Positions 5,054-33,447 of a stretch of DNA of 64,000 bases are shown here, piece by piece (within the stretch, counting starts at the first letter, position 1; each line of letters begins with the position of its first letter). The position numbers and the translations under genes were made by a program. Source of the stretch: Escherichia coli O157:H7 (GTDB lineage: Bacteria; Pseudomonadota; Gammaproteobacteria; Enterobacterales; Enterobacteriaceae); the NCBI RefSeq assembly GCF_013167455.1, contig NZ_CP038328.1. One strand, 5' to 3'. The notes beneath the pieces were generated by a model. That model searched no databases. It was given only the letters and a program-made list of their open reading frames with translations, and was not told the DNA's origin.

Positions 5054-5851
5054 ATGGAAATAAGTACCCTACAAATCATTGCTATATTTCTTTTTTCCTG
5101 TATTGCCGGAATGGGCAGCGTGCTGGATGAATTTCAGACTCATCGCCCGTTAATTGCCTGTACGGTGATTGGTTTAATTCTCGGTGATTTAAAAACCGGA
5201 ATAATACTCGGTGGTACGCTGGAATTGATAGCTCTCGGCTGGATGAACGTCGGCGCGGCGCAATCTCCGGATTCTGCACTCGCCAGCATAATCTCCGCCA
5301 TTCTGGTTATCGTTGGTCAGCAAAGCATCGCCACCGGAATCGCCATCGCGTTGCCTGTGGCTGCGGCAGGCCAGGTGCTGACGGTGTTTGCCCGTACCAT
5401 CACCGTAGTGTTCCAGCACGCGGCGGATAAAGCAGCGGAAGAAGCACGGTTTCGCACTCTCGATATTCTGCATGTCTCCGCGCTTGGCGTGCAGGCGCTG
5501 CGCGTCGCCATTCCGGCACTGATTGTCTCGCTGTTCGTCAGCGCCGATATGGTGAGCAATATGTTAAACGCCATTCCCGAATTTGTGACCCGAGGTCTGC
5601 AAATTGCTGGCGGTTTTATCGTGGTAGTCGGTTACGCCATGGTGCTACGTATGATGGGCGTGAAATATTTGATGCCTTTCTTTTTCCTCGGTTTCCTCGC
5701 AGGTGGCTACCTCGATCTCAGTCTGCTGGCGTTCGGTGGCGTCGGCGTGATCATGGCCCTGGTCTACATCCAGCTAAATCCACAGTGGCGTAAAGCTGAA
5801 CCTCAACTCCTGGCCCCCGCTTCCACCGCCCTTGACCAACTTGACGATTAA
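5054..5851 (+). CDS. sorA: PTS mannose/sorbose-family EIIC membrane component
   Basis: 265-aa hydrophobic ORF, multiple TM segments, EIIC-Man family context. Confidence 0.85.
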   Translation: MEISTLQIIAIFLFSCIAGMGSVLDEFQTHRPLIACTVIGLILGDLKTGIILGGTLELIALGWMNVGAAQSPDSALASIISAILVIVGQQSIATGIAIALPVAAAGQVLTVFARTITVVFQHAADKAAEEARFRTLDILHVSALGVQALRVAIPALIVSLFVSADMVSNMLNAIPEFVTRGLQIAGGFIVVVGYAMVLRMMGVKYLMPFFFLGFLAGGYLDLSLLAFGGVGVIMALVYIQLNPQWRKAEPQLLAPASTALDQLDD

Positions 5852-5861
5852 CGGAGCCATC

Positions 5862-6686
5862 ATGGAACAGAGAAAAATTACACGCGGCGATCTGGTGAGC
5901 ATGTTTCTGCGCTCCAACCTGCAACAGGCGTCCTTTAACTTTGAACGTATTCACGGGCTGGGTTTTTGCTACGACATGATCCCCGCCATCAAGCGACTTT
6001 ACCCAGTAAAAGAGGATCAGGTTGCGGCGCTCAGGCGACACCTGGTGTTCTTTAATACCACGCCAGCCGTATGTGGCCCGGTCATCGGCGTCACTGCCGC
6101 CATGGAAGAGGCGCGGGCCAACGGCGCGGAAATTGATGACGGCACCATTAACGGCATCAAAGTCGGTCTGATGGGACCATTGGCAGGGGTTGGCGATCCA
6201 CTGGTCTGGGGAACGCTGCGCCCGATTACCGCCGCGCTCGGCGCATCGCTGGCGCTGTCTGGCAACATTCTCGGCCCGCTGCTGTTCTTCTTTATTTTCA
6301 ACGCGGTGCGTCTGGCGATGAAGTGGTATGGCCTACAGCTCGGCTTTCGCAAAGGGGTGAATATCGTCAGCGATATGGGCGGGAATGTGCTGCAAAAACT
6401 CACCGAAGGCGCGTCGATTCTCGGACTGTTTGTGATGGGCGTGCTGGTCACCAAATGGACGTCAATCAACGTACCGTTGGTGGTTTCACAAACGCATGCC
6501 GCCGATGGCTCCACCGTCACCATGACCGTGCAGAACATTCTCGATCAACTTTGCCCTGGTTTGCTGGCGCTCGGTCTGACGCTACTGATGGTTCGTCTGC
6601 TCAACAAAAAAATTAACCCGGTATGGCTGATTTTCGCCCTGTTTGGCTTAGGGATTATCGGCAATGCGCTGGGCTTCCTGTCCTGA
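5862..6686 (+). CDS. sorM: PTS mannose/sorbose-family EIID membrane component
   Basis: Start chosen at ATG 5862 (MEQRKITRGDL...) after GGAG; 274 aa, hydrophobic, EIID-Man family. Confidence 0.85.
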   Translation: MEQRKITRGDLVSMFLRSNLQQASFNFERIHGLGFCYDMIPAIKRLYPVKEDQVAALRRHLVFFNTTPAVCGPVIGVTAAMEEARANGAEIDDGTINGIKVGLMGPLAGVGDPLVWGTLRPITAALGASLALSGNILGPLLFFFIFNAVRLAMKWYGLQLGFRKGVNIVSDMGGNVLQKLTEGASILGLFVMGVLVTKWTSINVPLVVSQTHAADGSTVTMTVQNILDQLCPGLLALGLTLLMVRLLNKKINPVWLIFALFGLGIIGNALGFLS

Positions 6687-28044: not shown

Positions 28045-28237
28045 TCACAACCCGAAGATGTTTCTTTCGATTCATCATCGTGTTGCGAAAATTTGAGAGA
28101 CTCACGAACAACTTGCGTTGTTCAGTGTTTCAATTTTCAGCTTGATCCAGATTTTTAAAGAGCAAATATCTCAAACATCACCCGAAGATGAGTTTTGAGA
28201 TATTAAGGTCGGCGACTTTCACTCACAAACCAGCAAG

Positions 28238-28398: not shown

Positions 28399-29940
<1,542 letters not shown>

Positions 29941-30123
29941 AAAAGTTTGATGCTCAAAGAATTAAACTTCGTAATGAATTACGTGTTCACTCTTGAGACT
30001 TGGTATTCATTTTTCGTCTTGCGACGTTAAGAATCCGTATCTTCGAGTGCCCACACAGATTGTCTGATAAATTGTTAAAGAGCAGTTGCGACGCGGCTTT
30101 CAGCTCACTGTCGCGAGGTGGCG

Positions 30124-30152
30124 TATATTACGCTTTCCTCTTTCAGAGTCAA
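30124..30152 (-). promoter_or_regulatory. rrnE P2 promoter
   Basis: Minus strand TTGACTCTGAAAGAGGAAAGCGTAATATAC (-35 TTGACT, -10 TAATAT). Confidence 0.8.
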
Positions 30153-30234
30153 CCCTGAATTTCAGAATTTTTCTCTTCAACCGAACCGGCTGTTTGTGTG
30201 AAGTGATTCACATCCGCCGTGTCGATGGAGGCGC

Positions 30235-30262
30235 ATTATAGGGAGTTCTCCGCAGGCCGCAA
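30235..30262 (-). promoter_or_regulatory. rrnE P1 promoter with upstream AT-rich UP/Fis region
   Basis: Minus strand TTGCGGCCTGCGGAGAACTCCCTATAATGCGCC (-35 TTGCGG, -10 TATAAT, GC-rich discriminator); AT-rich sequence further upstream. Confidence 0.8.
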
Positions 30263-30433
30263 TAGAAAAATTGCAGAAAAATGACTGACTGCTGCATTCC
30301 CCAGCAAAACCCCGCTTTATACCTTTTTACGCACAGAGTTATCCACAATCATCAGCGTTATTTCTCTATTTCTCCCACGCTAATCGGGGGCAAAATCGTG
30401 ATCGCCATCGAATTAAAAAAATTCGCGAGCGTT

Positions 30434-30455
30434 GCGCAAACGTTTTCGTTACAAT
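30434..30455 (+). promoter_or_regulatory. PurR operator overlapping purHD promoter -10
   Basis: GCGCAAACGTTTTCGT resembles the PurR box, followed by TACAAT. Confidence 0.7.
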
Positions 30456-30556
30456 GCGGGCGAAAAATAAGGATGCCCCGTTAGGGGCGTTAGCTGAGTT
30501 TTTCGCGAAAAATTCAGCTAACGCTCTCTGTAATAGTCAAATCCAGGGGATTTACC

Positions 30557-32146
30557 ATGCAACAACGTCGTCCAGTCCGCCGCGCTCTGCTCAGTGTTTC
30601 TGACAAAGCCGGTATCGTCGAATTCGCCCAGGCACTTTCCGCACGCGGTGTGGAGCTGCTGTCTACAGGGGGCACTGCCCGTCTGTTAGCAGAAAAAGGT
30701 CTGCCGGTAACCGAAGTTTCCGATTACACCGGTTTCCCGGAGATGATGGATGGACGCGTGAAGACCCTGCATCCGAAAGTACATGGTGGCATTCTGGGCC
30801 GTCGCGGCCAGGACGATGCCATTATGGAAGAACATCAGATCCAGCCTATCGATATGGTGGTTGTTAACCTGTATCCGTTCGCCCAGACCGTGGCCCGTGA
30901 AGGTTGCTCGCTGGAAGATGCGGTTGAGAACATCGATATCGGCGGCCCAACGATGGTGCGCTCCGCCGCCAAGAACCATAAAGATGTCGCAATCGTGGTG
31001 AAGAGCAGCGACTACGACGCCATTATTAAAGAGATGGATGACAACGAAGGATCGCTGACGCTTGCAACCCGTTTCGACCTCGCCATCAAAGCCTTCGAAC
31101 ACACTGCCGCCTACGACAGCATGATTGCCAACTACTTCGGCAGCATGGTTCCGGCTTATCACGGTGAAAGCAAAGAAGCCGCCGGTCGCTTCCCACGCAC
31201 GCTGAACCTGAACTTCATTAAGAAGCAGGATATGCGTTACGGCGAGAACAGCCACCAGCAGGCTGCCTTCTATATAGAAGAGAATGTGAAAGAAGCCTCC
31301 GTTGCTACCGCAACCCAGGTTCAGGGTAAAGCCCTCTCTTATAACAACATCGCCGATACCGATGCGGCGCTGGAGTGCGTGAAAGAGTTCGCCGAGCCGG
31401 CATGTGTGATTGTGAAGCACGCCAACCCTTGCGGCGTGGCTATCGGCAATTCAATTCTTGATGCTTACGATCGCGCGTACAAAACCGACCCGACCTCCGC
31501 ATTCGGCGGCATCATTGCCTTTAACCGCGAGCTGGATGCGGAAACCGCACAGGCCATCATTTCTCGTCAGTTTGTTGAAGTGATTATTGCGCCGTCCGCC
31601 AGCGAAGAAGCCCTGAAAATCACCGCCGCCAAACAGAATGTACGCGTTCTGACCTGCGGTCAGTGGGGCGAGCGTGTTCCGGGTCTTGATTTCAAACGCG
31701 TGAACGGCGGTCTGCTGGTTCAGGATCGCGATCTGGGCATGGTCGGTGCGGAAGAACTGCGCGTCGTCACCAAACGTCAGCCGACCGAACAGGAACTGCG
31801 TGATGCGCTGTTCTGCTGGAAAGTGGCGAAGTTCGTGAAATCCAATGCTATCGTCTATGCCAAAAACAATATGACCATCGGTATTGGCGCGGGCCAGATG
31901 AGCCGCGTGTACTCCGCGAAAATCGCCGGTATTAAAGCTGCCGATGAAGGCCTGGAAGTGAAAGGTTCCTCGATGGCTTCTGACGCGTTCTTCCCGTTCC
32001 GCGACGGTATTGATGCCGCCGCCGCTGCGGGCGTGACCTGCGTAATCCAGCCTGGCGGTTCCATCCGTGATGACGAAGTGATTGCCGCCGCCGACGAGCA
32101 CGGTATTGCGATGCTCTTCACCGATATGCGCCACTTCCGCCATTAA
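30557..32146 (+). CDS. purH: bifunctional AICAR transformylase / IMP cyclohydrolase
   Basis: 529-aa [44 protein letters not shown]... matches PurH. Confidence 0.96.
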
Positions 32147-32157
32147 TGGAGCGACAG

Positions 32158-33447
32158 ATGAAAGTATTAGTGATTGGTAACGGCGGGCGCGAGCACGCGC
32201 TGGCCTGGAAAGCGGCCCAGTCGCCGCTGGTTGAGACTGTTTTTGTTGCTCCGGGTAACGCAGGCACAGCGCTGGAACCCACGCTGCAAAACGTCGCTAT
32301 CGGCGTGACCGATATCCCGGCGCTGCTGGATTTCGCGCAAAACGAAAAGGTAGATCTAACCATCGTCGGCCCGGAAGCGCCGCTGGTGAAAGGCGTGGTC
32401 GATACCTTCCGCGCCGCCGGGATGAAAATCTTCGGCCCAACCGCAGGCGCCGCACAGCTGGAAGGCTCGAAAGCGTTTACTAAAGATTTCCTGGCCCGCC
32501 ATAACATTCCTACGGCGGAATATCAGAACTTCACCGAGGTAGAACCTGCGCTGGCGTATCTGCGTGAGAAAGGCGCGCCAATCGTCATTAAAGCGGACGG
32601 TCTGGCTGCCGGGAAAGGCGTTATCGTGGCGATGACGCTGGAAGAAGCGGAAGCGGCTGTTCACGATATGCTGGCGGGCAACGCGTTTGGCGACGCGGGT
32701 CATCGCATCGTTATCGAAGAGTTCCTCGACGGCGAAGAAGCGAGCTTTATCGTGATGGTGGACGGCGAGCATGTGCTGCCGATGGCCACCAGCCAGGATC
32801 ACAAACGCGTAGGCGATAAAGATACCGGGCCGAACACGGGCGGAATGGGCGCTTACTCTCCTGCGCCGGTAGTGACAGATGACGTTCATCAGCGCACGAT
32901 GGAACGTATCATCTGGCCAACCGTGAAAGGCATGGCGTCGGAAGGCAACACCTACACCGGTTTTCTCTACGCGGGCCTGATGATCGACAAACAGGGCAAT
33001 CCGAAGGTTATCGAATTTAACTGCCGCTTTGGCGATCCAGAAACCCAGCCGATTATGCTGCGCATGAAGTCCGATCTTGTTGAACTCTGCCTGGCGGCCT
33101 GTGAAGGCAAACTAGACGAGAAAACGTCAGAGTGGGATGAACGTGCTTCTCTCGGCGTGGTGATGGCTGCGGGTGGATATCCGGGCGATTACCGCACCGG
33201 TGACGTGATCCACGGCCTGCCGCTGGAAGAAGTGGAAGACGGCAAAGTGTTCCACGCGGGCACAAAACTGGCGGATGACGAGCAGGTGGTAACCAGCTGC
33301 GGGCGCGTACTGTGCGTCACCGCGCTGGGTCATACCGTAGCAGAAGCACAGAAACGCGCCTATGCCTTAATGACCGATATCCACTGGGACGACTGCTTCT
33401 GCCGGAAAGATATCGGCTGGCGCGCTATCGAACGCGAGCAGAACTAA
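32158..33447 (+). CDS. purD: phosphoribosylamine-glycine ligase
   Basis: Start at ATG 32158 giving MKVLVIGNGGREHALAWK... (429 aa) matching PurD. Confidence 0.95.
   Translation: MKVLVIGNGGREHALAWKAAQSPLVETVFVAPGNAGTALEPTLQNVAIGVTDIPALLDFAQNEKVDLTIVGPEAPLVKGVVDTFRAAGMKIFGPTAGAAQLEGSKAFTKDFLARHNIPTAEYQNFTEVEPALAYLREKGAPIVIKADGLAAGKGVIVAMTLEEAEAAVHDMLAGNAFGDAGHRIVIEEFLDGEEASFIVMVDGEHVLPMATSQDHKRVGDKDTGPNTGGMGAYSPAPVVTDDVHQRTMERIIWPTVKGMASEGNTYTGFLYAGLMIDKQGNPKVIEFNCRFGDPETQPIMLRMKSDLVELCLAACEGKLDEKTSEWDERASLGVVMAAGGYPGDYRTGDVIHGLPLEEVEDGKVFHAGTKLADDEQVVTSCGRVLCVTALGHTVAEAQKRAYALMTDIHWDDCFCRKDIGWRAIEREQN

Follow-up and report, generated by a model that had tools for sequence, protein, structure and literature searches.

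The purHD Locus

The purHD operon of Escherichia coli O157:H7 lies within a 64,000-nucleotide stretch of contig NZ_CP038328.1 (assembly GCF_013167455.1), referred to here as the window. Its untranslated leader contains a palindrome at positions 30487–30524, designated P2, which, on the comparative sequence evidence described below, is the E. coli form of a conserved RNA stem-loop. The purH gene (529 amino acids, 30557–32146, plus strand) was taken from the list of open reading frames (ORFs) and from the RefSeq annotation of identical O157:H7 and K-12 loci. It is followed on the same strand by purD (32146–33447, ORF list), and the rrnE 16S gene lies upstream in divergent orientation. The region 30250–30620 is 100% identical to NZ_AP018488.

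The PurR operator (PUR box), gcgcaaacgttttcgt, is located at 30436–30451 on the plus strand and overlaps the promoter. It is the opposite-strand reading of the purH-purD site ACGAAAACGTTTGCGC mapped by chromatin immunoprecipitation on arrays (PMC3159470), and none of the Enterobacterales leaders examined lacks it. The −10 hexamer, TACAAT, occupies 30450–30455 (plus strand), and every leader contains the pattern (C/T)TA(C/A)AAT followed by GC-rich bases. These landmarks and the purH ATG at 30557 lie where an earlier annotation of the window, made from the letters alone and called here the sequence-only reading, had placed them. The discriminator GCGGGCG (30456–30462) is directly 3’ of the −10 hexamer, and this segment is GC-rich in every Enterobacterales purH promoter examined and leads into an A-rich initial transcribed region. 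A GC-rich discriminator together with an A-rich initial transcribed region is a signature of stringent promoters, which are sensitive to guanosine tetraphosphate (ppGpp) and DksA. Judging from the −10 spacing, transcription of purHD probably starts near 30462–30463, giving an untranslated leader of about 95 nucleotides. No purH entry was found in the transcription start site tables of PMC3415461.

The P2 Palindrome in E. coli

The palindrome, GCGTTAGCTGAGTTTTTCGCGAAAAATTCAGCTAACGC, is situated between the PurR box and −10 region and the purH ATG. It has 19-nucleotide arms with zero spacer and 95% complementarity, and can alternatively be described as 16-base-pair (bp) arms flanking TCGCGA. The sequence-only reading had reported a near-perfect 38-bp palindrome with 16-bp arms and one mismatch. 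That description holds, but its end coordinate of 30527 includes three surplus bases (TCT). In purH-sense RNA the sole mismatch, G30498/T30513, becomes a G·U wobble, and the opposite strand has A·C there.

As an RNA stem-loop on the plus strand, P2 is composed of a left arm (30487–30503), a CGCG loop (30504–30507), and a right arm (30508–30524). It has 17 pairs around the loop, G30498·U30513 included, or 19 if the palindromic centre pairs as well. The predicted free energy is −22.5 kcal/mol with a z of −8.7 against shuffled sequences, and the core pair probabilities in the ensemble are 0.99–1.0. No other close inverted repeat in the window combines arms of at least 19 nucleotides with at least 95% complementarity. 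By our own estimate, the number of palindromes of this quality expected by chance in 64 kb is about 1e-4.

Conservation and Covariation of P2

A total of 80 purH loci from species-representative genomes were fetched and their leaders read; where needed, individual leaders are labeled with a locus number (example, L012). P2 is conserved across enterobacterial purH leaders, being present in 34 of the 44 Enterobacterales leaders examined. These belong to the Enterobacteriaceae, Erwiniaceae, and Yersiniaceae; the single Pectobacteriaceae leader, that of Brenneria, carries a divergent form. The elements recur in one order: PUR box, −10 hexamer, GC-rich discriminator, a short A-rich single-stranded 5’ end, a GC hairpin (P1), P2, and a pyrimidine tract containing GCUCU.

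The conserved base of P2 is formed by (G)CGUUA-N-C-UGA pairing with UCA-NN-UAACG(C), and the apex is hypervariable. The total length ranges from 38 nucleotides in Escherichia, Citrobacter, and Enterobacter to 102 nucleotides in Rahnella. A single long hairpin is predicted from the conserved base in 34 of 34 leaders, with z from −1.9 to −8.7. The long P2 of Erwiniaceae and Yersiniaceae (L029, L030, L031, L032, L035, L037, L038, and L039) also contains an apical CUCU-(U)UAUAUA-GAGA motif, which is sometimes duplicated and which the short Escherichia-type P2 has lost.

Covariation was measured on an apex-trimmed alignment (A2), with the 3’ partner slid by 1–3 columns as the control. Standard pairs occupy 90.6% of cells in the proposed register as compared with 31–49% in the slid registers. 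Compensatory changes occur in eight pairs, most clearly where column 11 pairs with column 28 (GC 16, CG 10, UA 2, and UG 1).

The two strands are not equivalent. In the predicted helices of the 34 leaders, G·U pairs number 64 and A·C 1x1 mismatches 5. In 28 of the 34, the sense strand folds more stably than the antisense strand. The G·U excess and the stability of the sense strand indicate that selection acts on the sense RNA and not on duplex DNA. The long RNA stem that the sequence-only reading had pictured in the leader is thus borne out by a helix kept through compensatory changes, a hypervariable apex, and a sense-strand G·U bias. Of the classes of element considered, a conserved structured cis-acting RNA with compensatory substitutions on the transcribed strand is the only one for which every expected feature was found.

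The sequence-only reading had offered two DNA-level interpretations of the palindrome: an operator for a dimeric regulator, and an insulator buffering the purH promoter from the divergent rrnE promoters, for which a cruciform is an alternative. The E. coli palindrome is near-perfect with an AT-rich centre, and the rrnE promoters are only about 250–350 bp from it. The divergent rrn-purH layout is also widespread in Enterobacterales; many contigs stop just upstream of purH, and the 16S gene is found in L026, L033, and L043. Across genera, however, the half-site spacing ranges from 0 to more than 60 nucleotides, and the centre differs between leaders and in many cases is not a palindrome (TTTTTCACGAAAAA and TTTTTAGCCAAGAA are examples). 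With neither arm spacing nor loop sequence conserved, a dimeric DNA operator is not supported. The mismatches are moreover of the kind tolerated in RNA and not in DNA, and both the ratio of G·U to A·C and the strand bias would be unexpected for a DNA structure or a DNA-binding site.

The insulator fares no better. A divergent 16S gene lies within 600 nucleotides of purH in Pantoea, where P2 is present, and in Tatumella and Xenorhabdus, where the consensus P2 is absent. Conversely, Vibrionaceae purH genes have a leader hairpin and no 16S gene within 1.2 kb. Hairpin presence therefore does not track rrn adjacency. The comparative sequence data largely refute the DNA-level interpretations, and we regard them as very improbable.

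P2 also differs from the PurR operator, to which it is similar in being palindromic DNA in the control region of a pur-regulon operon and in its arm GCTAACG, which agrees with GCAAACG at 6 of 7 positions. The actual PUR box lies 36 bp further upstream, and the palindrome lacks a second half-site at the required spacing as well as a conserved arm spacing. A weak likeness of the right arm to the PUR box was dropped.

Copy Number and Restriction to purH

P2 is single-copy, with one locus per genome in 5419 complete E. coli genomes. The two places per genome returned by BLAST are the palindrome matching itself on both strands, and no second copy of an arm was found within the 64-kb window. The 66-nucleotide P1–P2 segment is at least 99% identical in 5381 of the 5419 genomes. 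In metagenome contigs, a degenerate pattern of the stem base was found at 31 loci, all 31 directly upstream of purH. The loop sequences at these loci vary freely (CGCG, CACG, AGAG, UACG, CGGU, and AGCC), so that the TCGCGA palindrome at the centre of the E. coli element is incidental.

A REP (repetitive extragenic palindromic) or ERIC (enterobacterial repetitive intergenic consensus) type repeat, or a miniature inverted-repeat transposable element, is ruled out because P2 is single-copy and restricted to purH. The statement in the sequence-only reading that the palindrome is not a REP unit agrees with the single locus per E. coli genome.

The region immediately upstream is more variable. Positions 30355–30420, which run from the rrnE upstream region to the purH −35 and lie 70 bp upstream of P1–P2, show about 25% divergence between O157 and K-12. 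The same segment differs by about 25% from AH25 and EP91B, and the adjoining promoter and leader (30421–30620) are identical. Across the species, the identity of 30250–30620 falls into bands of at least 99% (317 genomes), 95–99% (2954 genomes), and 90–95% (2148 genomes). This suggests that the rrnE upstream activating region exists as two or more old haplotypes or has undergone recombination. In strain EP91B (NZ_CP149810.1), an IS3-family transposase insertion (236–1449 of L003) has taken the place of the rrnE-proximal side, its end lying about 100 bp before the purH promoter. The purH promoter, P1, and P2 are intact.

P1, the Pyrimidine Tract, and the Shine-Dalgarno Hairpin

P1 is a GC hairpin, GCCCC-GUUA-GGGGC, at 30475–30488 on the plus strand. 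It abuts P2, and its last 2 nucleotides are shared with P2. A P1-type hairpin with a 4–6 bp C-rich/G-rich stem and a variable loop occurs in nearly all of the 34 leaders, with compensatory variants in L012 (CCUCU/AGAGG) and L037 (UCCCG/CGGGA). An alternative fold is an extended P2 into which the 3’ half of P1 is drawn. The two are nearly isoenergetic in E. coli, at −29.7 kcal/mol for P1 plus a 15-bp P2 and −28.4 kcal/mol for the extended P2. As a conserved alternative structure the extension (GGG:UCU) was rejected; it shows zero covariation and is broken in L011, L012, L037, L038, and L039. Since P1 is compensated and the extension lacks covariation, the comparative data favor P1.

A three-codon upstream ORF, AUG CCC CGU UAG (30472–30483, plus strand), overlaps P1 and has AAGGA immediately before it with no spacing. 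Its AUG is not kept in other genera, and it is probably not meaningful.

The pyrimidine-rich tract, CGCUCUCUGUAA, is at 30523–30534 (plus strand), immediately 3’ of P2. CGCUCU is conserved after P2, and GCUCU is invariant and abuts P2 in 34 of 34 leaders, about 20 nucleotides before the Shine-Dalgarno (SD) sequence.

A local hairpin, AAAUCC-AGG-GGAUUU (30539–30553, plus strand), partly covers the SD sequence AGGGGA (30545–30550), with pair probabilities of about 0.55–0.58. It is confined to Escherichia/Citrobacter/Enterobacter-type leaders. The predicted energy for opening the ribosome binding site (RBS) is about 7–8 kcal/mol in these leaders compared with 3.5–5 kcal/mol in Erwiniaceae and Yersiniaceae. 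A role of P2 as an RBS switch was rejected in silico. The mean opening energy of the SD–AUG region over 29 leaders is 5.89 kcal/mol with P2 and 5.84 kcal/mol with P2 deleted, and scrambling one P2 arm adds only about 0.3 kcal/mol to this energy. The unchanged opening energy on deletion indicates that P2 is thermodynamically autonomous and does not directly mask the RBS.

Hairpin and Tract in Leaders Lacking the Consensus P2

The combination of a hairpin and a pyrimidine tract is also found where the consensus P2 is absent. The Aeromonas leader contains a UCCCCCA...UGGGGA hairpin followed by CUCUCUGUGU, and the Photorhabdus leader a CCCA...UGGG hairpin followed by UUCUUUCC. Mangrovibacter and Tatumella leaders likewise have a hairpin and then a C/U-rich tract.

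Vibrionaceae leaders contain a long but unrelated hairpin, which precedes a U-rich tract. The apex of this hairpin varies, and its base, GGUCUUUACCAAAA.../...UUUUGGCAAAUAUCUUU with a recurrent A·C mismatch, is conserved. The hairpin is located about 30–130 nucleotides upstream of purH. It was observed in L049, L053, L055, L057, L062, L063, L064, L066, L073, and L077 and is missing in V. hannami, V. salinus, and V. albus, a presence/absence insertion pattern analogous to that of P2.

Among the Photorhabdus leaders, that of P. caribbeanensis (L040) is 277 nucleotides long and that of P. namnaonensis 156 nucleotides. The extra length in L040, situated about 120 nucleotides into the leader, is an inserted imperfect palindrome (…CCCTGGGAGCATAGCGAACTATGTGACCAGGGTGAGTG…) with an ERIC-like appearance.

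Proposed Elongation Control

The arrangement of a hairpin followed by a pyrimidine tract recurs across these leaders, and it is the anatomy of pause, attenuation, and nut-type signals. On this basis, the P1/P2 hairpins and the tract are tentatively proposed as a candidate transcription-elongation control element (a pause, a leaky attenuator, or a nut-like site), a reading that we favor over the others while holding it to be less likely than not. The nascent P1/P2 hairpins and the pyrimidine- or U-rich tract would act on the transcribing RNA polymerase before the RBS emerges. The element may work as a pause or leaky attenuator and, in some lineages, in a nut-like (boxB/boxA-type) manner. The outcome would be to set the share of PurR-controlled initiation that continues into purHD.

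The tails after P2 are T-enriched, falling between the 1st and 8th percentile of background. Some other genera have 5–6 T in 8 nucleotides and tail scores down to −4.16. P2 is also similar in its general features to leader attenuators of unknown signal in enterobacterial genes (such as Rfam rnk_leader and the greA leader) and to intrinsic terminators, all of which place a stable conserved 5’ untranslated hairpin and a T-enriched tract before the RBS.

A number of observations weigh against elongation control. The first is that the presence of P2 within the transcript follows from promoter geometry, namely the −10 hexamer at 30450–30455, through an inferred start. Of the first 8 nucleotides in the E. 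coli tail, TCTCTGTA (UCUCUGUAAU, UCUCUGUA), 4 are T, and this weak U-tract scores −3.03, at the 7.6th percentile of background. This agrees with the sequence-only reading, which had noted that no U-run follows the palindrome. A sense-strand terminator scan did not call P2 in E. coli, and the tail falls short of the U-run (at least 5 U in 8) expected directly after the GC-rich stem of an intrinsic terminator. The stem of P2 (17–36 bp) is far longer than typical terminator stems. The E. coli 3’-end mapping tables consulted from PMC7815308, which are possibly incomplete, do not list purH, a gene repressed in rich medium. No anti-terminator alternative structure is evident, the overlap between P1 and P2 being only 2 nucleotides. 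The remaining points concern boxA. The E. coli tract has 7 of 11 matches to the boxA consensus with C4 present; moving the register by 2 nucleotides gives 9 of 11. Matches to boxA with at most 2 mismatches number 116 in the window against 87 expected, which is near chance, and purH is not among the published boxA-associated genes.

The only terminator called in the scan was a weak antisense terminator at P1. It is not conserved in other genera and was dropped.

The nut-like form of elongation control was considered separately. The P1–P2–GCUCU arrangement would here be a loading site that recruits NusB/NusE and the remaining Nus complex to the purHD polymerase. The result could be Rho-resistant elongation, or Nus-dependent repression of the nearby RBS as at suhB. 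The E. coli site would then be degenerate or weakened, with sites nearer to consensus in Erwiniaceae, Yersiniaceae, and Pectobacteriaceae. The tract in Erwiniaceae is CGCUCUUA, which is boxA-like and which we take to be identical to the lambda nut boxA. The boxA consensus is GYTCTTTAANA with a critical C at position 4 (PMC5725501). The tract of Serratia and Rahnella, GCUCUUUA, has 2 mismatches to this consensus, and that of Brenneria, GUUCUUUAAUG, has 1.

In common with the NusB/NusE(S10)-bound nut signals of rrn (boxB-boxA-boxC) and of lambda (nutL/nutR), the purH leader has one or more hairpins directly before a single-stranded GCUCU tract, in the same order as in rrn. The likeness of P1 (GCCCC-GNNA-GGGGC) to lambda boxB is superficial. 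In contrast to nut sites, an extra long hairpin, P2, intervenes. The E. coli tract, GCUCUCUGUAA (UCUCUGUAAUA in the shifted register), differs from GYTCTTTAANA at 2–4 positions, including position 6, which was mutated together with position 4 in the suhB study. The true rrnE boxA, GCTCTTTAACA, is at 30073–30083 on the other strand, 450 bp from the purH tract. The nut-like form is judged improbable.

Three perfect GYTCTTTAANA matches were observed in the window. The rrnE leader boxA is the match at 30073–30083 (minus strand), with a boxC-like tctgtgtggg after it. The match at 28153–28163 (minus strand) is probably the 16S–23S spacer boxA. The third, at 6047–6057 (plus strand), is inside a 284-amino-acid ORF (5832–6686) and is probably due to chance.

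Other RNA-Level Explanations

P2 may instead be an RNase III entry site or a processing or stability site, at which cutting or binding would reset the 5’ end, half-life, or translation of the purHD mRNA. E. coli RNase III prefers two helical turns of duplex. The 19-bp duplex of P2, including one G·U, can be extended by 3 pairs (G·U, G-C, and G·U) or by stacking of P1, and thus supplies the roughly 20 bp or more of largely uninterrupted double-stranded RNA that characterizes RNase III substrates. Its position in the 5’ untranslated region apart from the RBS is similar to that of the rnc and pnp leader sites, whose hairpins (rncO and pnp) are also long, near-perfect duplexes of about two helical turns. 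In wild type the purH mRNA is long-lived, with a half-life of about 10 min (PMC5694010, Supplementary Data 2). The orthologous stems in most other species are, however, broken every 5–8 bp by 1x1 mismatches, and purH is a metabolic and not a ribonuclease gene. Among the RNase III sites listed in the portion of PMC5371410 consulted, none is at P2. The sole purH–rrsE intergenic site, 4207874, maps to approximately 30215 in the window, within the rrnE leader; this negative is weak, as purH is repressed in rich medium. The invariant GCUCU tract is also left unexplained. RNase III processing is unlikely on balance, yet carries some weight.

Another explanation is that P2 is a tolerated or structural insertion between P1 and the tract that arose in the ancestor of the four families and has no trans-acting partner. 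Folding would be kept only so that the flanks stay adjacent and the arms avoid misfolding with the RBS. The outgroups Aeromonas and Photorhabdus have a P1-like hairpin followed directly by a C/U tract without P2, and the length and sequence of the apex are almost unconstrained. The thermodynamic independence of P2 from the RBS, including the small cost of arm scrambling, is in keeping with the same idea. Against it, deletion bias should remove 38–102 nucleotides without function, yet P2 persists in most of the Enterobacterales leaders. It is near-invariant in more than 5000 E. coli genomes beside a segment that is about 25% variable, and both sequence and pairing are conserved at its stem base. 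A tolerated or structural insertion is given a low, though real, likelihood.

P2, or the P1–P2 junction, could also be an RNA operator for a protein, a small RNA, or a metabolite, acting on translation or stability and possibly autoregulatory, or a riboswitch-like sensor. Six stem-base pairs (GCGUUA/UAACGC) show little or no variation, and the same is true of the 5’-side C at alignment column 12. Opposite this C stands G, C, or U, a pattern suggestive of base-specific recognition. P1 plus P2 and the extended P2 are nearly equal in energy, and PurH was recovered as an RNA-associated protein in an orthogonal organic phase separation (OOPS) screen (bioRxiv 10.64898/2026.07.23.740326). On the other side, very few conserved unpaired nucleotides are available to form a pocket, the alternative pairing lacks covariation, the RBS is unaffected in silico, and Rfam gives no match, the ZTP riboswitch included. 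We know of no ligand or protein candidate for P2. An RNA operator is accordingly viewed as doubtful.

The last of these explanations is that P1 and P2 bring two CsrA sites together, GGA at 30471–30473 (in AAGGAUG) and the GGA of the SD sequence, allowing CsrA to repress purH translation. The sequence AUAAGGAUG resembles the CsrA consensus from SELEX (systematic evolution of ligands by exponential enrichment), and many leaders have a GGA directly before P1, although several (L017, L019, and L020) do not. The published data speak against bridging. For purH, the crosslinking and immunoprecipitation sequencing (CLIP-seq) entry is "No" and there is no co-purification (PMC5694010, Supplementary Data 2). 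In a csrA mutant, the log2 fold change in purH translation efficiency is 0.04 and not significant, with only a general, approximately two-fold loss of stability (PMC5694010). In view of the CLIP and translation-efficiency data, bridging of the two GGA sites was rejected as very improbable.

Rfam Matches and Other Resemblances

A search of positions 29800–30900 against Rfam 15 with an E-value of at most 10 returned only one overlapping match, a spurious mir-725 at 23.8 bits against a gathering score of 76. No match at the gathering score was found in the leaders of 12 other gammaproteobacterial purH loci. Neither the ZTP riboswitch nor the purD motif gave a covariance-model match, with an E-value of at most 10 in this region or at the gathering score in the 12 loci. 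P2 resembles the ZTP riboswitch (pfl motif) in its position in a purH leader and in the idea of RNA-level control of AICAR transformylase. It differs in having no similarity to it in sequence or structure, no pseudoknot, and no conserved pocket. Away from P2, the Yersinia small RNA family Ysr197 was matched at 30062–30295 (minus strand) in the rrnE leader, at 117 bits and below the gathering score of 167. This family appears to have been modelled on rRNA leader sequence.

Three further resemblances were dropped: a K-turn or box C/D likeness of CUGA/UGAUG in Erwiniaceae, a tRNA D-arm likeness, and a 9-nucleotide identity to 16S rRNA (AGCUAACGC). Each was either not kept across genera or involved positions that are perfectly paired in E. 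coli. The mention of purH in PMC11109978 refers to an unrelated Thioalkalivibrio motif.

The purHD sequence papers of 1989–1990 reportedly note dyad symmetry in the leader. The comparative motif (P1, a P2 with variable apex, and GCUCU) appears to be new in the literature searched, as do the finding that it is confined to purH and the evidence for its action as RNA.

Significance for purHD Regulation

Repression by PurR is, to our knowledge, the only characterized control of E. coli purHD. The sequence-only reading had suggested an additional regulatory layer on purHD, and the palindrome may provide one. In many other phyla purH is governed by the ZTP riboswitch, which enteric bacteria lack. 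The practical stakes are modest, as a single operon is involved. If the nut-like form were true, the synthesis of purine nucleotides would be tied to the machinery that transcribes rRNA, right beside rrnE. Even as a mere stability or structural element, P2 would be a well-defined conserved RNA motif that is absent from Rfam. A purH-specific leader structure kept in at least three families is a testable candidate for a second, post-initiation layer of control over the last steps of inosine monophosphate (IMP) synthesis.

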